From: an uncultured Verrucomicrobiae bacterium
Lineage (GTDB): Bacteria > Verrucomicrobiota > Verrucomicrobiia > Opitutales > Opitutaceae
Length of the DNA stretch: 64,000 nt
Direction of reading: 5' to 3'
Assembly (NCBI GenBank): GCA_963804395.1
Contig: CAWDQK010000002.1
Coordinates: 1,169 to 65,168 of the forward strand
Shown: positions 916 to 45,776 of the stretch, piece after piece
Position numbering within the stretch: the first letter of the stretch is position 1
How the letters are laid out: each line of letters starts with the position of its first letter
Translations under genes and position numbers: made by a program
Notes under the pieces: model-generated
The model's input: only the letters and a program-made list of their open reading frames with translations
Told to the model about the DNA's origin: nothing
Databases searched by the model: none

Positions 916-988
916 GCGGCCGAGAACGCAAACGTGGCTGCGAGCGTGAGCGAGCGGAAAGGGCGTCCACTCGCTCACGCTTGCGGCC
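916..988. repeat. GC-rich palindromic intergenic repeat, family 2 (CCGAGAACGCAAACGTGGCTGCGAGCGTGAGCGAGCGG - loop - CCACTCGCTCACGCTTGCGGCC)
   Basis: Near-perfect ~22-bp inverted repeat with 9-nt loop. Related copies at 16268-16316 (reverse orientation), 21310-21365 and 39515-39577. Confidence 0.6.
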
Positions 989-1174
989 ACACCTGATAAA
1001 CCGCGTTTGAAGTATTCCGGGCGGAGGCATCCAGGCGAATGCGCCCACCGTGGCACGGACGGGATAAAAGAATTGGGTGTATTCACCCAAGATCGCCTGA
1101 TCTCGGATGTCTTGTCAACAGCAAGACTGTCGTAATACTTTGGATATAGGTATGTTACAGAAACTATCAGATCC

Positions 1175-1190
1175 TGGCACGCCGTGAGCA
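1175..1190 (+). promoter_or_regulatory. candidate sigma-54 (-24/-12) promoter
   Basis: TGGCACG-N4-GAGCA with GG and GC at the canonical 10-nt spacing, ~50 nt upstream of the ATG at 1239 and directly downstream of a sigma-54 activator gene. Confidence 0.4.
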
Positions 1191-1238
1191 ATTAGCTGGT
1201 GTCCGAACGAAGATCCCAGTCAGCCCGATTCCAGTTCC

Positions 1239-2174
1239 ATGAAAACAACCCTTCCTTTTCTATTCTGCTTTGCCTGTCTGACCGCGGCATTCACCGCTCG
1301 CGCGGAGGATTATGGGGACATTACCGCCATCTCTTCCCTGGCGAACGACGACTATGTCCGGACCAAGCTTCCGAACGGTTCGTATGCGCCGGAGAGCTAT
1401 GCCTTCGGGGAAGGCGGACTGTGGAATGGACGCATGGGCGATCCCTCGATCGACAATCTGAGGTTCATCGAGATCGCGCGGACGATCGCGGGTCCGCTGG
1501 CGAGCCGGAGCTATGTGCCGGCACGTGATCCAAACACGACCAAGCTGTTGATCATGGTCTATTGGGGAACGACCATTGGCACTGACGACGCTTCCAGTTC
1601 CATTGGTTACCAGAATGCGAGTGCTGCCGTGCAAAACCTAGCCAACGCCAAGGGAGCCGTGCAGGCAGCGAGGGCGGCAAGATCCAGCGGAATGAACGGG
1701 ATGCTGGCCGGAGCGATCGGGCAGGCGGCGCAGTCTGAAATGGAATTGGCCATGGAGGAGATCGGATTGGAGAACGACATTCGCGACAAGCAGGACCTCG
1801 ATAATGCCCGCATTCTCGGCTACAACCGGACTGGAATGTTTCAAACGGACTACGGTCGGGGACTCGAGGGGACTGCGTTACGCTACCGGCGGCGCGATCT
1901 GATTGCGGAAGTCGAGGACGACCGCTATTTCGTCGTGTTGATGGCCTATGATTTTCAACTGATGTGGAAGCAGAAAAAGCACAAGTTGCTTTGGGAAACG
2001 CGCTACAGCATCCGGCAGTACCACAATGATTTCGACAAGGTGCTGGCGGGGATGACCCAATATGCGTCGCAATATTTCGGCAAGGACAGCCAGGGATTGA
2101 TCCGCCAGCGGCTGCCGGTCGGCAACGTCAACATCGGTGAGCCAAAAGTCATCGAGGTTGAGCCGGCAAGATGA
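1239..2174 (+). CDS. secreted hypothetical protein, paralog A of a 3-member family in this window
   Basis: 311-aa ORF with signal peptide MKTTLPFLFCFACLTAAFTARA. Shares motifs YVRTKLxxGS, DPxIDxLxFxxxAxxIAGxL, YVPxRDxNxTKLLIxVYWG and RYFVVLxAYDF..LLWxTRxSIR with 2215-3391 and 12177-13460. No characterised domain recognised. Confidence 0.6.
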   Translation: MKTTLPFLFCFACLTAAFTARAEDYGDITAISSLANDDYVRTKLPNGSYAPESYAFGEGGLWNGRMGDPSIDNLRFIEIARTIAGPLASRSYVPARDPNTTKLLIMVYWGTTIGTDDASSSIGYQNASAAVQNLANAKGAVQAARAARSSGMNGMLAGAIGQAAQSEMELAMEEIGLENDIRDKQDLDNARILGYNRTGMFQTDYGRGLEGTALRYRRRDLIAEVEDDRYFVVLMAYDFQLMWKQKKHKLLWETRYSIRQYHNDFDKVLAGMTQYASQYFGKDSQGLIRQRLPVGNVNIGEPKVIEVEPAR

Positions 2175-4831: not shown

Positions 4832-4992
4832 GGCGGCGGGCCTCACCGCGCCGGCTACAGCGGACGGTCTTCTGCAGCCGGGGGCGCATGCCCTGAGCCT
4901 GCCGAACGGGCCGACCCCGGCCTGAATGTCTGCCGGGCTGCGGTGCGTAGACTTGATCGAAGGCCGGCCTCACCGCGGCCGGCTACAATTGC
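4832..4992. repeat. GC-rich mosaic palindromic repeat array, family 1 (GGCCGGCCTCAC/ACGCGGCCGGCTACAGCGGACGGTC..CTGCAGCCGGGGGCGC..CCTGAGCCTGCCGAACGG)
   Basis: Modules GGCCGGCCTCA(A/C)CGCGG, CCGGCTACAG, CTGTAGCCGGGGGCGCTGACCCCGG and CTGAGCCTGTCGAACGG recur in varying order at 18940-19100, 30385-30445, 33696-33724, 36323-36546, 37866-37900, 42950-43060, 51495-51530 and 58440-58500. Confidence 0.65.
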
Positions 4993-5063: not shown

Positions 5064-6101
5064 TCAAGCATCCGCCAGCTGCCGAAACCCAAGCTGATCG
5101 CCGAGGGCGAGGCATTCTGCGGCCGGGCGGACGCTCTGGGAACAGGTTGGGTGATAAAGCGAAGCGGCGGCAGCGCAGACTCCAAGCTTGAGGCTCCGCT
5201 GCATCGTCCAGAATTCGTGGCAGCCGTAGAGAACGCCGGCGGCAAACGCATCGCCCGCACCGGCGAGTCCGGCGATGTCGCCTGCGGGAACATCTACGCT
5301 GGACTGCCAGATCACTCCGCCGCCCGCGGAGCTGGCGCATGCGCCTTCGGGAAAATGGATCAGCGCCCATTCATGCACGCCAAGCCCGACCAGCATCTTG
5401 GCGGCCCGTTCAACCGTGCGGCGATCGAGTTCCATGCCACGCCGGAGGGGAAAGCCGGTGAGTTTCTCGGCTTCAAAGTCATTGGCAAACAGCAAATCGA
5501 CCTCCGGCAGCACCGGCGCGACGACGGTGAGAAAGCGGCCGCTGTTGTCGCTGACGCAATCCATCGACGTCGCCAGGCCGGCCGCTCGCGCCTGCGCGAA
5601 GACCCGGGCCAGGCGCGGGAGGCCGTCAACTCCGGGAGCGTCAAGGGCGTCAAGGAGCAGCGCGTATCCCAGGTGAAAGCGCCGGGCACGCGTGCGGAGA
5701 AAGTCGAAATGTTCCGGCGCGAGGAGCGCGTTCGCGCCGCGCTGGTGAAAAAAGGTGCGGCGACCGGTGGACTTCACTGTCATGACATCCGTGTAGGACG
5801 TGGCGGCGTCCGCCGTGACCGCGAGTTGCGCGGTGCCGATGTGATGGGCGCGGCAGTCGTCGCGGATCAGCCGGCCGCCGTCGTCGTCGCCCACCAAACC
5901 GACGCCTTCGAGCGGAAACGGCGCGCCGAGCCGGGCGAGGTCCTTGAGGACGTTGTACGGCGAGCCGCCATTGCCCCACGACTCACTGAGAATGTTGGCG
6001 AGCGAGTCCTCCGGTGGCCACGCGTCGATGACCTTTACGTGGTCGATGAGCCAGTTGCCGCCGGCGAGAAGGCCGCGGCGCGTTGGATCGATGGCAGTCA
6101 T
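5064..6101 (-). CDS. PfkB-family carbohydrate kinase (ribokinase-like)
   Basis: 345 aa. C-terminal PfkB signature GAGDAFAAGVLYG. N-terminal region resembles ribokinase-fold kinases. Confidence 0.85.
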   Translation of the reverse strand: MTAIDPTRRGLLAGGNWLIDHVKVIDAWPPEDSLANILSESWGNGGSPYNVLKDLARLGAPFPLEGVGLVGDDDGGRLIRDDCRAHHIGTAQLAVTADAATSYTDVMTVKSTGRRTFFHQRGANALLAPEHFDFLRTRARRFHLGYALLLDALDAPGVDGLPRLARVFAQARAAGLATSMDCVSDNSGRFLTVVAPVLPEVDLLFANDFEAEKLTGFPLRRGMELDRRTVERAAKMLVGLGVHEWALIHFPEGACASSAGGGVIWQSSVDVPAGDIAGLAGAGDAFAAGVLYGCHEFWTMQRSLKLGVCAAAASLYHPTCSQSVRPAAECLALGDQLGFRQLADA

Positions 6102-6670
6102 GGAGAGACCAGCTTCACCGCTGCAGGCTCGTCTGCCTCGACGCCGGGGAAGCGGCCGACATCGGGGTTCAGGAAGAGATTGTCGTGGAGGTCGTCGTTG
6201 GCGGTGGAAACCTCACCGATGACGCATTCGGCGCTGGAAGGGAAGAACTCGTGCCACACGCCCGGGACCAGCGTGACTCGCGAGCCGGCGGCAAGGACGA
6301 ACGGTTCTCCGGAACGGACTGTCGTCAGCTCGCCATCGACGGGCACCGCGAACGTGGGGGCGAGTTGGGCCACTGTCGTCGGTTTCGCGGGCCAGAGCCT
6401 GAGCGTAAGTTCGCCCGCGCGGCAGATGATGTCCTCCTTCTTGTTGGCGTGGCAGTGGCAGACCGTGGTCTGGCCCCGCGTCGCCCACATCAGTTTCTCG
6501 CAATACTCCGGCTCCGTCGCGAGGTTGACCAATACGGAACCGTAATGCTCGAAATCGCCGAGGCCAAAGTCGGTGATGTCCCACTTTGGTCTTGGCGGCA
6601 GGGTCCAGCCATTTCGTGCGAAACAGGCGGTGGCGGCACGGAAGGCGGAGTTGATAACGGATTGTTTCAT
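6098..6670 (-). CDS. cupin-type sugar isomerase (D-lyxose/D-mannose ketol-isomerase-like)
   Basis: 190 aa. Cupin metal motif CHCHANKKEDIICRAGE plus second His motif PGVWHEF. Size and motifs fit the D-lyxose isomerase cupin family. Family assignment is from memory, not a search. Confidence 0.45.
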   Translation of the reverse strand: MKQSVINSAFRAATACFARNGWTLPPRPKWDITDFGLGDFEHYGSVLVNLATEPEYCEKLMWATRGQTTVCHCHANKKEDIICRAGELTLRLWPAKPTTVAQLAPTFAVPVDGELTTVRSGEPFVLAAGSRVTLVPGVWHEFFPSSAECVIGEVSTANDDLHDNLFLNPDVGRFPGVEADEPAAVKLVSP

Positions 6671-6676
6671 GACAAT

Positions 6677-7768
6677 TTAGCGTCGGGCGCGGGAAGGCAT
6701 GGCGGTGGGCTGCAAGTCCGCACTGAGCGGCCGGTGGGGGCGAATGCGGAGTCGCCGCAGCGTCGCGTGATAGGCGCGGACCGCCTCGGCCGGCTTGATT
6801 TCACCGTCGGCGATCCGCCGCAAAAACTCGATGAACGTCACCGGATGTTCGGAGAGATTGATCTTTCGGCCGAAAAGCGCCGCCCAAGCGCCATGCTGCT
6901 GGGCGTCGTGGATGAGTTGGAACGCGTCAAGGGTGGTTCCAGCGCTGCCGCCGAGGATTCCGACGATCAGACTTGGATCGTAGGTGACCAACTCTTCGAG
7001 CGGGCCCGGCCCATGGTAGGGAATCTTCAGGAAAATCGGCCGCCCCACCGAGGGCACGCCGGCGAGCGCGCGCACGATGTGGTCGTTGAGAAATGCCCCG
7101 ATCCGGCGGGCGGGAATGCCGGTGGCGACATTCGGATTGAACACTTCGAGGAGATAGCGGAATTGCTTGGCTTCCGCCTCCTGGCGAAAGGCGGCGAACT
7201 CTTCGAGCGTCCGGTGGTCCGCGTCGAGGTTGTTCGTAAAGGTGATTGAATACAGCCCGAGGTCCGCCCCGGTGGCCGGTCGCGTGCAATCCGCCGTCGT
7301 CTGGCCGTATTTGATCTGTTCGATCGACGCACTGCGGAACGGTCGGGATGGCTGGGTGTGGTATTTCCCGCCCCGGACCAGCCAGATGTCGGTTGTGTCG
7401 TTGGCCCGGCCCGCGGGTGTGATCGGGGAGTGCTCGAACAGGCGCTCGCGCATGGCAAGCTGCTCGATGTTCGAGGCGGACAGCAGAACGATGTCCACGA
7501 GACCTTGCGCCACGACGTCGCGGATCTGGGCACGGTAATCCTCCAGTGTCTTCCAGCAACCACCCGGGACCTGGCGGAGCCGCGGCCGCTGCTCTCCCGG
7601 GCCGGGCGCGGTCAGGCCAAGCGCCAGGTCGGCGTCCTTGGCGTCGGCAATGATGAAGTCACTCCGCGTCGCCTGTCCGGCGCGGATGCGGGCCAGCTTT
7701 TCGTCGAGACGTTTCGGTGCGGACATTGGTTTGGGTGACGGATGAGGAGAAGGACGGTGGGGTGCCAT
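6677..7768 (-). CDS. hypothetical protein, possibly a TIM-barrel class I aldolase (LacD/DeoC-like)
   Basis: 363-aa ORF, translationally adjacent to the kinase and isomerase. Assignment is tentative and rests on context plus the IIADAKDAD and FLKIPY segments. Confidence 0.4.
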   Translation of the reverse strand: MAPHRPSPHPSPKPMSAPKRLDEKLARIRAGQATRSDFIIADAKDADLALGLTAPGPGEQRPRLRQVPGGCWKTLEDYRAQIRDVVAQGLVDIVLLSASNIEQLAMRERLFEHSPITPAGRANDTTDIWLVRGGKYHTQPSRPFRSASIEQIKYGQTTADCTRPATGADLGLYSITFTNNLDADHRTLEEFAAFRQEAEAKQFRYLLEVFNPNVATGIPARRIGAFLNDHIVRALAGVPSVGRPIFLKIPYHGPGPLEELVTYDPSLIVGILGGSAGTTLDAFQLIHDAQQHGAWAALFGRKINLSEHPVTFIEFLRRIADGEIKPAEAVRAYHATLRRLRIRPHRPLSADLQPTAMPSRARR

Positions 7769-7877
7769 TATCTGCGCGCCTCGTCGCGCCGCGACGATTT
7801 TGTTGGAGGCTGGCGAGGCGATGGCTCAAGTCGGTGGGCGGTCAACGTGGCGCCTGGCCGCGCCGAAGACGCGCCCA

Positions 7878-7908
7878 GGATCAATGTCAACTAATAGATG
7901 ACATTTCG
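7878..7908. repeat. 31-bp AT-rich palindromic element GGATCAATGTCAACTAATAGATGACATTTCG, copy 1
   Basis: Exact reverse-complement copy at 37944-37974. Internal 7-bp inverted arms AATGTCA/TGACATT around a 9-bp AT-rich core. Supplies the last 7 codons (VEMSSIS) and the stop of the GH2 gene. Confidence 0.8.
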
Positions 7909-10136
7909 ACCCGGGCAGGGGCGCCCGGTGGTTCCTCATCCGCCGGAGCAAGCGGCATTGTGTATTCGGAATCCCATTCCGGGCGTCCCTCGACACGCAG
8001 GCGCAGGGTGAATCGATCGGCGTTGGCGGGGTGGGTCAGGCGCCAGTGCAAAACTGGTCCCCGCACGTGGCGGTCGGAAACGGCTTCCGGGTGCTCCCAG
8101 GTCAAGACGGTCGTTTCGAGGTCAGCCAGGACGATGGCCGCGGCGATGCGGCCGGCGGGAATGGTTTCATTCGAGTCGTTCAGGAGCCAGAGCTCAGCCG
8201 CGAAATCTTCCCCCTCCGTCCAGGAGAATTTCGGGATGCGGGCGCTGGCCATGACCGGCCGGCAGGCTGCGGCTACCGCGTGATAGGCCGGTTTCGGCTC
8301 GGCGGGCCAGTTGACGATGCTGTTGTTGGCAGCGGATGGCCAAGGCTCGTTGAAACACCAGTTGAGGGCCATCGAGCACCCGGGCTTTTGCCGACGCGCC
8401 TCTTCGAAAATCACCTTGTACCCCTCGGCTTGCAGCCATTGACCCTGCGCGACCGCTGCTTCCAGGCCGGCGGGCTCGCCGAAATAGTGTCGCTGAACGT
8501 CGAGGAAAAGCCAGGACGTGGGTTCCATCGACCATGCGCCGAGGCCGTGGTGGACCTGCCAGGACGATCCCGGCTGTGGAGGCCAAAGCTCGGACTCGGG
8601 GATGAATTTCTTGAGGTAATCCACCGGCGAAGGGCCCGGACAGCCGAACTCCGAGTAGGCCGTGCCGCTGGCCGCCGCGAAGATCTGGTGGACTTCGCGT
8701 CCACGCTCGTCGCGGAACCGGTAGTCGCCATGCCTCATGCCGTCCAGGGGCGCCGTCGGAATGAACGGCGTGGCGGGATCGAGATCGAGGCAGTTACGGT
8801 TCAGAATCCGCAACGCGAGCGACTGGTCGGTCATGCGCGACCATGAATTGAACAGCTCGTTGCCGCCGCACCAGATTGCCAGGCACGGATGACGCCGAAG
8901 GCGGCGGATGATCGACCGCGATTCTGCCTCAAGGACCCGCAGGTAGTCCGGATCATCGGCGTAGAGATTGCACGCGAGAGGAAACTCCTGCCAGACCAAC
9001 AGTCCCATTTCATCGCACAGATCGAAGAACCCCTCCTTGTTCACGATCCCGCCGCCCCAGGAGCGGATGAGGTTGAGGTGGGCGTCGCGGATGAGCCCGA
9101 GCAGCGGCCGGTAGGTTGCGGTGTTGATTGTGCCAGGAAAAATGTCGGGAGGCACCCAATTGGTTCCTCGTGCGAAAATCGGCCGGCCGTTGATTTCGAT
9201 CGTGATCGGCGGATGATTGCGCGACTTCGGAAAACTCGCCGGCAGATCCCACGCTCCTTCATGCATCACCAGTTTCACCTGGCGAAATCCAACACGTTCA
9301 ACCCGCTGGTTGACAGGCTTGCCCGACGGATCCAGAAGCTCGAATGTCGCCCGATAGAGCGGCTGGAGCCCATGGTCCTGCGGCCACCAGAGCTGCGGGT
9401 GTGCGAGTTTCGCCACGTCCCGACCTTTGCCTCCGGCCAGGTCGCTCTGGCCACTGAGCACCGCGGCCCCCGAAGGATTCGAAAGCGTCCAACGCCAGCT
9501 CAGACCGTCCGCCGCTGCGGAAGCGGAAACCGCCAACTCCAAATCCGCGCTTCGCAGCGACTGATCCAGGCGATAGGTGACGCCGCATTCCAGAAAATGC
9601 GCCGATGGCCTGACCTCCAGGCAGGTGTCCTGCCAGATGCCCAGCGGAATCAGGCGAGGATGCCAGTCCCATCCATAGGCGACCGCCGGCTTCACGCTCA
9701 GGCGGGCCTGGCTCGGATCGTCCCGTGGCGACGGGGCCATTGGCGCTGGCCAGAGGCGTATTTCCAGAAGGCCGCCCGATTGCGCCCGATCCGTGAGATC
9801 GATTTCAAAGGGCGTGAACATGCCCTCCTGTTCATGCACAATCTGGTCGTTCCAGACGACGGCGAACCGATAGTCAACCCCGCCACAAACGAGAAAAAGT
9901 CGCCCGCTGCCGGCGTTGAAGGAGCCGCCAACCCGGGCGCGATAGGTCCAGTAGACGTCTTCCATCCAGCGATAGGACGCGCAATTGGCGCCGTGCCAAT
10001 AGGGCGGCCAACCCTCTGCCCGCGCCCAGTCGAGCTGCACGGCCCCGGGCACCGCGGCGGGCACCCAACGTGCCGGTCGCGCTTCGGCCGACGGAGCGTG
10101 GCCCACTTCCCAATCGAAATCGATGCGGCGGATCAT
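7887..10136 (-). CDS. glycoside hydrolase family 2 (beta-mannosidase/beta-galactosidase-like)
   Basis: 749 aa. GH2 TIM-barrel segment NLIRSWGGGIVNKEGFFDLCDEMGLLVWQEFPLACN, paralogous to the same segment in 13469-16099. No signal peptide. Confidence 0.8.
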   Translation of the reverse strand: MIRRIDFDWEVGHAPSAEARPARWVPAAVPGAVQLDWARAEGWPPYWHGANCASYRWMEDVYWTYRARVGGSFNAGSGRLFLVCGGVDYRFAVVWNDQIVHEQEGMFTPFEIDLTDRAQSGGLLEIRLWPAPMAPSPRDDPSQARLSVKPAVAYGWDWHPRLIPLGIWQDTCLEVRPSAHFLECGVTYRLDQSLRSADLELAVSASAAADGLSWRWTLSNPSGAAVLSGQSDLAGGKGRDVAKLAHPQLWWPQDHGLQPLYRATFELLDPSGKPVNQRVERVGFRQVKLVMHEGAWDLPASFPKSRNHPPITIEINGRPIFARGTNWVPPDIFPGTINTATYRPLLGLIRDAHLNLIRSWGGGIVNKEGFFDLCDEMGLLVWQEFPLACNLYADDPDYLRVLEAESRSIIRRLRRHPCLAIWCGGNELFNSWSRMTDQSLALRILNRNCLDLDPATPFIPTAPLDGMRHGDYRFRDERGREVHQIFAAASGTAYSEFGCPGPSPVDYLKKFIPESELWPPQPGSSWQVHHGLGAWSMEPTSWLFLDVQRHYFGEPAGLEAAVAQGQWLQAEGYKVIFEEARRQKPGCSMALNWCFNEPWPSAANNSIVNWPAEPKPAYHAVAAACRPVMASARIPKFSWTEGEDFAAELWLLNDSNETIPAGRIAAAIVLADLETTVLTWEHPEAVSDRHVRGPVLHWRLTHPANADRFTLRLRVEGRPEWDSEYTMPLAPADEEPPGAPARVEMSSIS

Positions 10137-16251: not shown

Positions 16252-16316
16252 GCGGACACGGCGGTCCGCCCTCCGCTCGCTCACGCTCGCAGCTACGTTT
16301 GCGTTCTCGGCTACAG
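16252..16316. repeat. mosaic GC-rich repeat (GCGGACACGGCGGTCCGCC module + family 2 module + GGCTACAG family 1 module)
   Basis: Reverse complement of GGCGGACCGCCGTGTCCGC (also at 55905-55924 and 36371-36420) joined to the reverse complement of the family 2 arm (916-956) and ending in CGGCTACAG. Confidence 0.6.
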
Positions 16317-16337
16317 TTCTAATTAAACCGCTCAAGT

Positions 16338-18899: not shown

Positions 18900-18939
18900 G
18901 GGACCTGGATGGTTTGGGTGTAGCCGGGGGCGCCCGCCC

Positions 18940-19100
18940 TGACCCATTCGACTCCGCTCAGGGTCATCCTGAGCCTGTCGAACGGATGAGCCTGTCGAAC
19001 GGGCTGCCCCCGGTCTGTTCATTCGAAAATCCAGGCCGGCCTCAACGCGGTCGGCTACAGCGGACGGTCATCTGTAGCCGGGGGCGCTGACCCCGGTCTG
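18940..19100. repeat. GC-rich mosaic palindromic repeat array, family 1
   Basis: CTGAGCCTGTCGAACGG x2, GGCCGGCCTCAACGCGG, CGGCTACAGCGGACGGTCATCTGTAGCC (8-bp arms around an 11-nt loop), GGGGGCGCTGACCCCGG. Confidence 0.7.
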
Positions 19101-19173
19101 GTTAGGACGGAAGTGTTGACTCTCCCAATACATTCGGCGTGCCTGCGGCTCAATGTCTTTCAGATCCGGTTCC

Positions 19174-21231: not shown

Positions 21232-21970
21232 GGGCGCCGGTGTGCACGGATTGAAGGAAACGGCTGCAGTGAAACGAAAAATGAATCTGAATTCCGCAGT
21301 TGCGGCTCGATCGACCCGCTCACGCTCGCGGCTAGAAGGAGCAGAAGCTGCAACTGCGGAATCCACATGAAAGCAGATGCCCGATGGTGGACGCGGCCAT
21401 GATTGCCGTTCGCGAATTGCTGTCAACGCAGGGGCAACCGCGGCGGCACAACCCGGCCAATCTTGGCCCACGAATGGCCCCGAATGCAAAACCAGCCGCC
21501 GGCATTTGAGACGCGAGCGCGCATGAATATTTGCGCTTCCACGTGATTCCCCCGGCAATGCCGCGGGATTCACAACCCTATCAAGCGCACTGCCAAGAAA
21601 GGATTCAGTCATGCGATTCGTGATGTTCGCCAAAGCTCCGCACCAGGAATTCAACGCCGCCACCAAGGACGGCACCCGAAGATGAATCGACCTTCGGTTG
21701 CGGAGGAACCGCGCCAGGCTTTTTTCGTCAAGTTTTGTGAAGCCACCCGAATTTCTCACGGATTTTTTACAGCCAGAAGACACAGGGAATTAAGGCCGGG
21801 GGGCGGAAGGGAAGTCCATCAGATTCCCCTCGATAAGATTCGTGGCAGCATGGCGTCCCGGCAAGGCATCCAGCACGGATTACAGGGTTCAACCGGATGT
21901 CTGGGATGCGTGCGGCCCTCGGTGGGATTCGTTTCTTGCGTCTGCGCAAATCGGCTGCAGTCTGGTCGTG

Positions 21971-33570: not shown

Positions 33571-33913
33571 GGGGTGGAGAAGATGCGCCAAACTTAAAGG
33601 CGTAATCCGCGATTGGCACAAGCGCGAAACCGACGCTCTTCCCGGAAGCGGTCGCGGCGGACACGGCGGGACAGGCCGTCAACGGCGTTCGCGCAGTTGT
33701 AGCCGGCCGCGTTGAGGCCGGCCCACGCGCCGGGACCGCCCTGCGCTCCGAAGCCTTGGCAAAGGAGTGCGTCCCGGCTACAGACCGCCCAGGCGGCGTG
33801 GACACCGCTTGTGCGGCCTACCAAACCGCCATCCAAGCCGGTACGGGCTGCCCGGGCATCAGCCTGCTGGCTCCAGGATTGCGTTTGCCCGGGCCGGCGG
33901 CAGCCTCCCGGGC

Positions 33914-36322: not shown

Positions 36323-36546
36323 CCTGTAGCCGGGGGTGCCGACCCCGGCCTGAGGCTCGCCTGTGTGGAGGGCGGACCGCTTGCCTTCGCTCAAGCTGCG
36401 GCTGGGCCGCCGTGTCCGCCGCTCGCCGCTACCGGAAAACTGTAGCCGGGGGCGCCTTGGCCCGCCGTAGCCTCGCGCGAAGGCGGCCGACTCCGGCGCA
36501 GTGGCCGGCCTCAACGCGGCCGGCTACAACTGCTGGGAGCTGTAGA
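36323..36546. repeat. GC-rich mosaic palindromic repeat array (family 1 modules plus GGCGGACCGC..CCGTGTCCGCC module)
   Basis: CTGTAGCCGGGGGTGCCGACCCCGG, GGCGGACCGC..GCTCAAG..GCCGCCGTGTCCGCCGCTC, CTGTAGCCGGGGGCGCC, GGCCGGCCTCAACGCGGCCGGCTACAACTG..GAGCTGTAG. Confidence 0.7.
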
Positions 36547-37504: not shown

Positions 37505-37879
37505 ATGCCTTCACTTTCCGACGCCACTACCACCATCGCCGATCTCAAAGCCCGCGTGCTTGCCTTCAGCCGGGAGCGGGATTGGGAACAGTTCCATTCG
37601 CCAAAGAACCTTAGCATGGCGCTCGCCGCGGAGGCGGGAGAATTGATGGAGCATTTCCTGTGGGTGGATCCGAACGCGTCCCAGGAGCGGTCCCGCGAGG
37701 CGGTGCGACGCCGGAAGATCGAGGAGGAAATTTCCGACGTGGTGATCTATTCGCTCGAATTTGCGAATGTCACGGGAATTGATCTGGCGGGCGCCATTGA
37801 GGCCAAACTTGCCGCCAACGCCCTGAAATATCCCGTGGACAAGGCCCGGGGCCGGTCGGAAAAATACACCGAATTGTAG
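37505..37879 (+). CDS. MazG-like nucleotide pyrophosphohydrolase
   Basis: Start at MPSLSD. EExGELxE-type motif AAEAGELMEHFLW and second EE motif KIEEEISDVVIY. Confidence 0.7.
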   Translation: MPSLSDATTTIADLKARVLAFSRERDWEQFHSPKNLSMALAAEAGELMEHFLWVDPNASQERSREAVRRRKIEEEISDVVIYSLEFANVTGIDLAGAIEAKLAANALKYPVDKARGRSEKYTEL

Positions 37880-37943
37880 CCGGCCGCGCTTGGGCCGACC
37901 TTCGCGCCAGCCGGCGGCGCGTCAGTCCCGCCGCCGCCCAGGC

Positions 37944-37974
37944 CGAAATGTCATCTATTAGTTGACATTGATCC
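37944..37974. repeat. 31-bp AT-rich palindromic element, copy 2 (reverse complement of 7878-7908)
   Basis: CGAAATGTCATCTATTAGTTGACATTGATCC. Contains TTGACA on the plus strand. Confidence 0.8.
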
Positions 37975-38002
37975 CTTGCAGCCCGCGGTCGCCGGCCCGG
38001 CT

Positions 38003-38251
38003 TCAACCATTGCAGCTGCAGGCGCCCCCGCACCCGCATCCGCCCCCGGCCCCGCGAGTAGCGCGGGTCGCGCCGGTGCGCTTGCCCGCCAGGCCCATGA
38101 AGCCGAATCCGCCGGAGATCACGCGCCGCACCGGCTCACCCGTTTCCGGATGTCGCCTGAGCGCTTCATCATTCATGCTCTGGACGAACTCAAACCGCAC
38201 GGGGAATTCGTCCGGATGCTGGGGGACGGTCTCGTAGACGTAGGTGGCCAT
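38003..38251 (-). CDS. FmdB-like small protein lacking the zinc-ribbon cysteines, Cys-rich C-terminal tail
   Basis: MATYVYETVPQHPDEFPVRFEFVQSMNDEAL..HPETGEPVRRVISGGF aligns to the FmdB pattern MPxYEYxCxxCG..FExxQxMxD..CPxCG..VxRxIS with all four Cys replaced. The tail GGGCGCGGACSCNG carries four Cys. Confidence 0.5.
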   Translation of the reverse strand: MATYVYETVPQHPDEFPVRFEFVQSMNDEALRRHPETGEPVRRVISGGFGFMGLAGKRTGATRATRGAGGGCGCGGACSCNG

Positions 38252-39514: not shown

Positions 39515-39577
39515 TGGCTGCGAGCGCCAGCGAGCGGTCGGTTGAACGTTGGCTCCACTCGCTGGCGCTCGTGGCCA
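39515..39577. repeat. GC-rich palindromic repeat, family 2 (TGGCTGCGAGCGCCAGCGAGCGG - loop - CCACTCGCTGGCGCTCGTGGCCA)
   Basis: 23-bp inverted arms with a 17-nt loop. Variant of 935-988. Confidence 0.65.
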
Positions 39578-39757
39578 CCCAGCCGGTGCTCTTTCTTACG
39601 AGACAACGGAGGAAACGGAGAGGGCGTTCTCTTCTCCCGTTTGTTATCTCAGTTTTCTCTGTTGCCTCTTGTAAAATTGTCTGGGTTTGGTTGCGGCCTC
39701 CGGCAGGTTCGGGATTGTCACCGTCAACGCATGATCTGGCTGCACCAGCCAGCGGGC

Positions 39758-42949: not shown

Positions 42950-43060
42950 ACTTGTAGCCGGGGGCGCTGACCCCGGCATGCCCATCGAAACCTCGCACGG
43001 AGGGCCGGCCTCAACCCGTTCGACACGCTCAGGGCAGGCGCGGCCGGCTACAGCGTGACA
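42950..43060. repeat. GC-rich mosaic palindromic repeat array, family 1
   Basis: CTTGTAGCCGGGGGCGCTGACCCCGG, GGCCGGCCTCAACCCG, reverse complement of CTGAGCGTGTCGAACGG, GCGCGGCCGGCTACAGCG. Confidence 0.7.
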
Positions 43061-44605: not shown

Positions 44606-44680
44606 GCCCTCATCGTCTAGCGGCTAGGACAAGAGATTCTCAATCTTTAAACCGGGGTTCGATTCCCCGTGGGGGCGCCA
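44606..44680 (+). tRNA. tRNA-Glu (anticodon CUC)
   Basis: Cloverleaf folded by hand. Acceptor GCCCTCA/TGGGGGC with one GU pair, D-arm GTCT-AGCGGCTA-GGAC, anticodon loop TTCTCAA (C34 T35 C36), 4-nt variable loop, T-arm CGGGG-TTCGATT-CCCCG, discriminator G, encoded CCA. D-arm TCGTCTAG.GGC.TAGGACA matches bacterial tRNA-Glu. Confidence 0.8.
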
Positions 44681-44924: not shown

Positions 44925-45776
44925 ATGCCCTTGCTATACCGCTATTTTCGCACGGGTTACCTGGAAACTCTTGATAATTGCGAGCTTAGGGTTGCGAGGA
45001 TTCGGGATCTCAATGATCCGTTCGAATGCAAAATTGCAATTGTCGGTGAGATGACGCCTGAAAATGCAAAGGCCCTTTTGACCGAGCGGAAAGACAGGGG
45101 GACTCTCCTTCATGGAATTCAGCAGAAATACCCTAATCTAAGGACGAGACGGGCGCTTGAACGCCACTTCACCCAACACAGCGAAGAATATGCACAAAAT
45201 CTCATTTTGGCTGAGCCAAGACTCAAAGAGAGAATCGAGAGAGTCAATTCGGACGTACTCGAAAAGGACATAAGGGTTGTGTGCTTCTCGGCTAACCAGA
45301 AGGACGATAGAAACACTGTCCTGTTGTGGTCTCACTACGCGAACGAGCACAAAGGCGTCCGGATCGGCTTTGATGTGCCTTCCGATGTTATGACACAATG
45401 CTTCCGCAAGATCGAATATTCAGACAACCGCGTTTTCCTCAATTTGACAGAGAACGCGGAATCGGAAGCAGGAAAAGAACAAATTGCGAGGTCACTGCGG
45501 ACCAAGAGCAGTTCGTGGGCATATGAAGAAGAAATTCGAATGCTTGTACATCCCGGCGAATGTTACGGTAAAACGGTCGTGGGTAAATCGATGGAATTTG
45601 TGAAGCTACCAAGATCTTGGGTTCGATTTGTGGATTTCGGGGTAAATGCGCCTGAATGTGACATCTCCAAGGTTCGCGAAATGGTGAAAGCACGCGGATA
45701 TGAGGCCGTGCTTAGGCAAGCGAAGACACATGCTACGAAGTTTTGCCTACTGTTTAATCCGATTTCTGGCGGGTAA
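44925..45776 (+). CDS. DUF2971-like protein in a low-GC islet
   Basis: 283 aa. N-terminal LYRYF..NDPFE and W(S)HYANEHKGVRIGF segments fit my recollection of the DUF2971 signature. Local GC ~45% against ~65% background, immediately 3' of tRNA-Glu. Confidence 0.6.
   Translation: MPLLYRYFRTGYLETLDNCELRVARIRDLNDPFECKIAIVGEMTPENAKALLTERKDRGTLLHGIQQKYPNLRTRRALERHFTQHSEEYAQNLILAEPRLKERIERVNSDVLEKDIRVVCFSANQKDDRNTVLLWSHYANEHKGVRIGFDVPSDVMTQCFRKIEYSDNRVFLNLTENAESEAGKEQIARSLRTKSSSWAYEEEIRMLVHPGECYGKTVVGKSMEFVKLPRSWVRFVDFGVNAPECDISKVREMVKARGYEAVLRQAKTHATKFCLLFNPISGG

Follow-up and report, generated by a model that had tools for sequence, protein, structure and literature searches.

What is the AT-rich palindrome in which a GH2 gene of this Opitutaceae genome ends, and does its inverted twin make the DNA between them invertible? 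The window (the whole stretch of 64,000 nucleotides that was analysed) holds exactly two copies of the 31-mer GGATCAATGTCAACTAATAGATGACATTTCG, one at 7878-7908 on the plus strand and its exact reverse complement at 37944-37974. The initial annotation had reported two inverted 31-mers 30 kb apart, and exact matching bears this out. It offered three identities for them: a transcription-factor operator, a site-specific recombination site or a minimal MITE.

The two copies in the window

A search of the window allowing up to 3 mismatches to the 31-mer found no third match, and 100 shuffles gave 0. A relaxed scan of the window with up to 6 mismatches to the 21-bp core returned nothing beyond the two known copies. 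The element is AT-rich against a GC-rich genome background. The features around it are as follows.

7878..7908: copy 1 of the 31-mer; its core, 7884-7904, is ATGTCAACTAATAGATGACAT, the mixed A·A variant
7909..7923: stretch over which the two copies stay homologous; 12/15 match 37929-37943, inverted
37944..37974: second 31-mer (copy 2), reverse complement of copy 1; core 37948-37968
7873..7916, minus strand: predicted hairpin around copy 1 on the GH2 sense strand; -31.4 kcal/mol, z = -2.9
37940..37976: predicted hairpin around copy 2; outer pairing to about 37928-37988
7887..10136, minus strand: GH2 (beta-mannosidase-like) gene with Pfam GH2 domains; its end lies inside copy 1
6677..7768, minus strand: gene of 363 aa with no Pfam domain; next downstream of copy 1, co-directional with GH2
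37505..37879, plus strand: MazG-like gene converging on copy 2; 124 aa from the start used by its orthologues
38003..38251, minus strand: Zn-ribbon ORF converging on copy 2 from the opposite side; its stop is 28 nt away

The element is discrete, as had been proposed, and its anatomy can be improved. Arms of 7 bp around a 9-bp AT core were described at first. A better description of the window core is ATGTCAaCTA-A-TAGaTGACAT, which is 21 bp long and has 10-bp arms with one A·A mismatch and a single central base. The flanks of the two copies were thought to be unrelated. The left edge is indeed sharp, but to the right of copy 1 the homology runs 15 nt past the 31-mer with 12/15 matches. The unit that both copies have in common is about 46 bp (an inverted pair of 46 nt, 91%). 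The two window copies are probably recently related.

In the predicted fold of copy 1 the AT-rich core stem is the apex, an internal loop comes next, and a GC stem (GCCCGGG/CCUGGGC) lies below. Predicted pairing around this copy reaches outward to about 7863-7928. The predicted fold of copy 2 has -20.7 kcal/mol on the plus strand (z = -2.2) and -28.8 kcal/mol on the minus strand (z = -3.3). On the strands that converging neighbour genes would transcribe, the window copies have z = -2.2 to -3.3.

Copy 1 supplies the end of the GH2 gene. The last residues, E-M-S-S-I-S, and the TGA stop (7889-7887) are read from it; the initial annotation was right about the TGA, but six codons are read from the element and not seven. 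Copy 1 lies 115 nt upstream of the start of the 363-aa gene, which is followed on the same strand by a lyxose isomerase and a PfkB kinase. The 363-aa protein is co-directional with D-lyxose isomerase and PfkB kinase directly downstream of GH2 (5064-7768, minus strand), and it may be an enzyme of a mannoside or rare-sugar pathway. At the other end, the MazG-like stop codon comes 64 nt before copy 2 and lies inside a GTAG-type REP. Both window copies are downstream of genes, since copy 1 follows GH2 in a tandem arrangement and copy 2 lies between convergent genes. The TTGACA hexamer that had been pointed out is present, but neither copy has a matching -10 element. A promoter was rejected on this ground and because the copies sit at gene 3' ends.

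The element also leaves a mark on gene calls. Spurious ORFs at 7717-8283 (plus) and 37770-38039 (minus) cross both copies in the open frame and have the peptide DQCQLIDDIS in common. The element will produce such ORFs ('...CQLIDDIS...') in annotation, and automatic annotation of Opitutaceae MAGs may take them for genes. It will also displace annotated gene ends, and it may give inverted-repeat assembly artefacts in Opitutaceae MAGs.

The window has other repeats. About 16 GC-rich GTAG-type REPs (GTAGCCGG/CCGGCTAC) form a separate family. The one at 37874-37908 gives the MazG stop (GAA TTG TAG, followed by CCGG) and is conserved in locus L134. A further repeat family, which contains GCTGCGAGCGTGAGCGAGCGGA within a longer sequence, is unrelated to the element.

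4851-4992, 18919-19108, 33693-33780, 36324-36533, 37874-37908, 42952-43050 and others: GTAG REPs
899-958 and 16272-16331: GCTGCGAGCGTGAGCGAGCGGA family, a 60-nt inverted pair with 83% identity
966-990, 21311-21335 and 39554-39578: other copies of the GCTGCGAGCGTGAGCGAGCGGA family

A tRNA-Glu(CUC) at 44606-44680 is followed by a low-GC3 ORF at 44925-45773 (DUF2971; GC3 0.52 against about 0.78 elsewhere in the window). The segment 44606-45773 may be a small island that integrated beside the tRNA gene.

A dispersed family and its pairing arms

The element is one of a multi-copy family. The exact 21-mer occurs at 10 loci in 5 species-level genomes of Opitutaceae/Verrucomicrobiota, and 5 of these loci are in one fragmented MAG that has variants as well. 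When the variable positions were left free, more than 120 metagenome stretches matched among the matches listed. Family size exceeds 160 copies, in at least 5 genomes and over 120 metagenome contigs. The carriers are Opitutaceae bacteria of soil and peat. The basic unit is an AT-rich palindrome of 21 bp, ATGTCA-W-CTA-W-TAG-W-TGACAT, which usually grows to 27 bp (AAC...GTT), reaches up to 43-45 bp, and is often the apex of a site-specific GC-rich stem. Among 142 copies there are 88 with the perfect palindrome ATGTCAACTAATAGTTGACAT, 20 with ATGTCATCTAATAGATGACAT and 18 with the mixed form as in the window. An arms-only search of 862 kb gave 46 additional variants and several local clusters.

The density of copies, more than 160 unique ones in about 870 kb, is that of sequence itself collected via the element; the window has 2 copies in 64 kb. 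Since most loci were ascertained via the core sequence, the estimates of copy number and of conservation are biased upwards. The core is near-invariant across genomes of 55-69% GC. An apex this uniform is more conserved than that of typical REPs, which hints at a further function or a reader.

Some copies are clustered. The clusters are intergenic, hold 3-5 copies at irregular spacings of 54-145 bp, and are reminiscent of BIME-like REP clusters.

L066:4357-4635: local cluster, five copies within 280 bp
L030:1062-1264: local cluster
L112:1185-1327: local cluster
L075:1317-1513: local cluster
L082:9875-10155: local cluster

Two of the clusters come after hydrogenase-maturation genes (hypF and a maturation protease). 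A CRISPR-like array was ruled out for the clustered copies by the irregular spacing and by the palindromic units. An uptake-signal-like 10-mer was ruled out as well: 214 half-sites lie within full palindromes and just 8 are isolated. Two metagenome loci have large inverted duplications, L047 (150-270 versus 990-1151) and L088 (copies at 1475, 2123, 2748 and 3392), and their arms carry the element with reverse-complementary flanks. These may be chimeras that assembly created at the hairpins, or genuine palindromic rearrangements.

Links to viruses and plasmids come to one viral contig and one chance-level 19-nt plasmid match, and the family is otherwise essentially absent there. The viral contig (L141:12213-12233) is the sole contig of the viral collection (IMG/VR, 13.1 kb) with the core, which lies near the contig end and may be host flank DNA within a prophage call. 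In Rfam scans of the window only the tRNA reaches the gathering threshold, and permissive scans give chance-level matches of hairpin or miRNA-like kind. A literature search for the element sequence gave no matching publication among the papers that could be searched. This is apparently a palindromic repeat family of Opitutaceae that has so far gone undescribed.

The size of the family bears on the question of inversion. The initial annotation suggested that a dif- or att-like site might make the intervening 30 kb invertible. One can see why: the two 31-mers are exact and inverted, and a 7-7-7 or 10-1-10 layout is formally like the core sites of recombinases of the dif/hix/att kind. Yet the copies number more than 160, are spread over many genomes and take every orientation and context. 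The 30 kb consists of housekeeping genes (GH2, GH31, DeoC aldolase, a two-component system, sucC, carbonic anhydrase, flotillin, RlmJ and Hsp20), and Pfam scans of ORFs covering most of the window, this segment included, found no recombinase, integrase or transposase. The gene order Hsp20-MazG-ZnRibbon-MIF around copy 2 is common to L134, a relative without the element there, so the window has kept the ancestral arrangement at this point. Nothing beyond the viral contig and the plasmid match above connects the family with mobile replicons. We give hardly any credence to a recombination site, and an invertible segment is strongly disfavoured.

The arms pair with each other. In a set of 42 copies that did not depend on the search pattern for their selection, positions 7 and 15 are Watson-Crick in 35/42 (T-A 16, A-T 15, C-G 4), with a G·T wobble in 4, and positions 1 and 21 alternate between A-T and T-A. 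The three flank positions adjoining the core pair in 43-52% of copies versus 23-27% of controls. Orthologous loci L044 and L065 differ by a double change, T9-A13 to C9-G13, and the L065 contig keeps a standard copy elsewhere besides the changed one. Over 149 copies the covariation score is 0.243 versus 0.143±0.007 in shuffles, none of which reach the observed value (0/500). Slid partners score 0.10-0.12.

Pairing extends outward in some copies. The palindrome continues perfectly for at least 6 bases further on each side in 13/166 copies, where about 0.04 is expected. Flanks beyond the consensus AAC...GTT are unique to each site. Subfamilies with long stems were considered as the source of this complementarity and explain little of it, the commonest outward 8-mer being found in 7/332 half-flanks. 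Predicted folds reach -39 kcal/mol with z = -9 (L026). Covariation of the arms argues for a hairpin, that is for intrastrand pairing, since a dimer that reads each half-site independently does not predict it. On this evidence each arm pairs with the other, whether in the transcript, in single-stranded DNA or both. The G·T wobbles have no transcribed-strand bias (24 versus 18, p = 0.44) and do not separate pairing at the RNA level from pairing at the DNA level.

Gene ends, stop codons and relatives

The family is biased to gene 3' ends. Among the 76 copies whose neighbours could be called, convergent genes flank 36, tandem genes flank another 36, and 4 have divergent neighbours. About 95% of copies come shortly after the end of a gene, and 47% are between convergent genes. 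The neighbours are functionally unrelated (ffh, mutS, ureC, lipB, hypF, cydB and others).

This distribution speaks against a transcription-factor operator, one of the identities proposed at first. On this view a dimeric transcription factor would read TGTCA-N9-TGACA half-sites and regulate neighbours such as GH2 and the sugar operon. A palindromic architecture fits such a protein, as does AT-rich sequence in a GC-rich genome. There is also one suggestive locus, L006 (identical to L023): a 123-aa HTH-like ORF (951..1322, minus strand) lies between two copies within 918-1340, and one of them abuts its start codon. However, this HTH-like protein has no homologue near any other copy and was rejected as a partner. 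Just 4/76 classified copies are placed between divergent genes, the neighbours have no function in common, and the covarying arms are not what independent half-site reading predicts. No sigma-70-type promoter overlaps either window copy. An operator is very unlikely and, like the invertible segment, strongly disfavoured.

The core has stop codons in 2/3 frames and is open in the third. Because it is palindromic, the pattern is the same on both strands. At 6 loci, GH2 included, an upstream ORF enters the core and ends at the identical internal TGA, and the element gives these 6 genes their C-terminal residues and their stop codon. The open frame is used in a gene of the NAD-epimerase/3-beta-HSD family, in which three orthologous loci have in-frame copies.

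L138:708: in-frame copy in the epimerase gene
L139:657 and 702: in-frame copies, duplicated
L052:492: in-frame copy

These copies read C-H-L-x-D-D-I (C-H/Q-L-x-D-D-I) and lie in a variable loop that the conserved blocks AVDAHLLAE and GKAYFITNGEPV enclose.

Could the copies simply be ordinary terminators or 3' stabiliser hairpins that do not move, alike through convergence or through conservation in place? Their place downstream of genes, so often between convergent ones, is where such hairpins belong. A U-tract (at least 5 T in the 8 nt after the core) follows 22% of copies versus 7% of controls, a threefold excess. Some copies resemble perfect bidirectional terminators, for example AAAAAATCATCG...CGATGATTTT in L088, and a bare hairpin occupies the equivalent site in L139. 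But terminators have no need for one specific 21-mer at more than 160 unrelated loci. They do not explain the in-frame copies inside genes, the differences in presence among close relatives or the unit of about 46 bp in the two window copies. Moreover, 78% of copies have no U-tract, both window copies among them, and a terminator scan called none at either. With a U-tract after just 22% of copies, classical intrinsic termination is not the general function. We consider this explanation improbable.

Presence among relatives is patchy. Orthologues of the GH2 gene (69-80% identity) end 9-15 residues earlier at stop codons of their own, and no element lies downstream of them; one of these orthologues belongs to a MAG that has the element elsewhere. 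The initial annotation suggested that the 3' end of GH2 had captured the element or received it by insertion, and this agrees with the comparison of C-termini for which it had called. The orthologues have different downstream genes, and the comparison establishes absence and not the boundaries of an insertion. The same limit applies at copy 2. In L134, a fully syntenic relative with a MazG 94% identical, the spacer between MazG and Zn-ribbon lacks the core and has GTAG REPs instead, and since it cannot be aligned it gives absence and not insertion boundaries.

A graded series is found downstream of orthologous methyltransferase genes. Here L052 has the element with a perfect 11-bp outer stem, L140 has it at the same position with an imperfect stem, L139 has a bare GC hairpin and L138 a tiny hairpin. 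The conserved feature is the hairpin after the stop codon, whose apex may or may not carry the AT-rich core. The series is equally compatible with insertion at the apex of a pre-existing hairpin and with central deletion of a long palindrome.

Of the three identities offered at first, a minimal MITE is nearest in spirit: the family is multi-copy, its presence varies between relatives, there are insertions inside genes, and the ends read TGT...ACA. A MITE of the classical kind, which a DDE transposase would move in trans with the arms as terminal inverted repeats, is another matter. No target-site duplication was detected at any tested offset or length (direct repeats of k = 2-8 are not in excess at offsets 0-15 on either side). 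At 21-45 bp the unit is under the usual size of a MITE, and conservation lies in its centre and not at its ends. Neither the genes adjoining examined copies nor the Pfam-scanned window ORFs revealed a transposase, and the roughly 870 kb searched held no related full-length insertion sequence as an autonomous partner. We regard a MITE in the strict sense as the least probable of all the readings.

Proposed mechanism and comparison with known repeat systems

We argue that the element is probably a REP/RPE-like palindromic repeat without a GTAG/CGTC tag, which forms a hairpin at transcript 3' ends. On this reading copies gather shortly after stop codons, where the neighbouring genes are convergent or in tandem. 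Some fell within the final codons of a coding sequence, and the TGA of the element then serves as its stop, as at GH2. A few persist inside genes in the single open frame. The family presumably spread by a copying process that leaves no target duplication. Its chemistry may be that of a single-strand hairpin in the manner of REP/IS200-like systems, or insertion or conversion at the apex of post-stop hairpins.

Once present, the main effect of a copy would be that of a stable 3' hairpin: protection against 3'-to-5' exonucleases and partial insulation or termination between neighbouring genes. Copy 1 would part GH2 from three downstream sugar-catabolism genes. RNase R and PNPase are known to act on REP-containing mRNAs (PMC12320835). 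The stop codon within the stem of copy 1 could also alter the termination of GH2 translation. In E. coli, work on REPs has described an effect of this kind for a stop codon within the stem.

There is a serious alternative to this transcript hairpin, although we think it unlikely. The element may be a DNA-level site of a dedicated protein, conserved across the family, that recognises its hairpin or cruciform form. Candidates are a domesticated HUH or tyrosine transposase, or a nucleoid or topology factor like gyrase and IHF at BIMEs. The apex hardly differs between species and leaves variation to the outer stems, and the palindrome runs right through its centre with a loop of A-W-T. Both are what a DNA reader would favour, as are wobble pairs without strand bias, copies clustered as in BIME-like arrays, and the absence of target duplication as with REP/RAYT chemistry. 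But no trans-acting enzyme or binding protein is encoded beside any examined copy or cluster, and the GTAG cleavage tag of RAYT substrates is missing. The post-stop position is explained equally well by a role in RNA or by tolerance of insertion.

A bolder idea can be built on the same apex, and we hold it with no more confidence. The invariant AT-rich apex might be the recognition module of a hairpin-specific system, not yet described and conserved across Opitutaceae. In one form the system would be a micro-element that is mobile and specifically targets the apex of hairpins already present after stop codons. In the other a dedicated protein would read the apex on transcript 3' ends or on extruded DNA hairpins, and it would control termination, mRNA decay or local DNA topology. 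If true, either form would be a new class of 3'-end element and not another REP family.

The untagged repeat that we favour is worth attention in its own right. Short palindromic repeats influence how operons are expressed, how stable mRNA is and how plastic genomes are, and to our knowledge they have been characterised almost only in Proteobacteria. The present family would add a core that is kept across species, which implies that a reader protein or mechanism is conserved too. It would also add clear cases of gene remodelling: a six-residue tail and a stop for GH2, stops for five other genes, and an in-frame peptide in an enzyme loop.

How does the element compare with repeats that are already known? 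Prokaryotic MITEs such as Correia, ERIC and QMITE2 are small and non-autonomous, prefer intergenic regions and 3' UTRs, can modify ORF ends, and vary in copy number between relatives (PMC10969869). The element is like them in all of this. It differs in being much shorter than the usual MITE length of about 50-500 bp, and in having no target-site duplication and no separate segment between the inverted repeats; nor could a parent insertion sequence be found.

An intrinsic terminator is a GC-rich stem-loop with a direct U-tract, and the element is not of this kind. SPRITE of Streptococcus pneumoniae and the paired uptake sequences of Neisseria are putative parallels: the element too is a repeated sequence that forms a hairpin directly downstream of genes, and some of its copies have flanking A- and T-tracts. 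It differs from terminator-like repeats in that most copies lack a U-tract. It differs from uptake sequences in that isolated half-sites are not over-represented, so the palindrome is not a signal motif that merely pairs up.

Rickettsia palindromic elements (RPEs) are closer in one respect. They insert in-frame into protein-coding genes (PMC10969869), and the element too is a palindrome that adds a short conserved peptide within coding genes. RPEs are about 100-150 bp long, carry the CGTC tag and are confined to Rickettsia, whereas the element is 21-45 bp long, has no CGTC and is found in Opitutaceae. Nearly half of the first-described RPE copies were inside ORFs, while intragenic copies of the element are rare.

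REPs are the closest of all in form and position. They are palindromes of 20-40 bp able to form a stem-loop, and the element is one too (21 bp, usually 27 bp, up to 43-45 bp). It is dispersed in many copies across genomes and metagenomes and is sometimes clustered, as REPs are in BIMEs. REPs are mainly found between convergent or unidirectional ORFs (Di Nocera et al., PMC3733652), and the element follows the same bias and is rarely between divergent ones (36/36/4). It is presumably transcribed as a 3' hairpin, it has no target duplication, and occasional copies lie inside genes.

The differences from REPs are just as clear. The GTAG/CGTC tag is absent from the core and consensus flanks (AAC...GTT) of the element, with the flanks beyond varying, and no RAYT was found among the window ORFs or the genes adjoining examined copies. 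The element is AT-rich and perfectly palindromic through its centre, and it keeps its apex while the outer stem is site-specific. REP families are usually species-specific, but the same core is found in at least 5 species-level genomes. The element is thus likened to REPs and RPEs without being filed under either: it lacks the tag of the two REP superfamilies and the target duplication and size of MITEs, and in-frame insertion is common to it and the RPEs. The window also holds true GTAG REPs, a family apart from the element, in which Opitutus terrae is rich (Di Nocera et al., PMC3733652). Beside these GTAG REPs known from Opitutus, the present family would add a second, untagged type of repeat in Verrucomicrobia.
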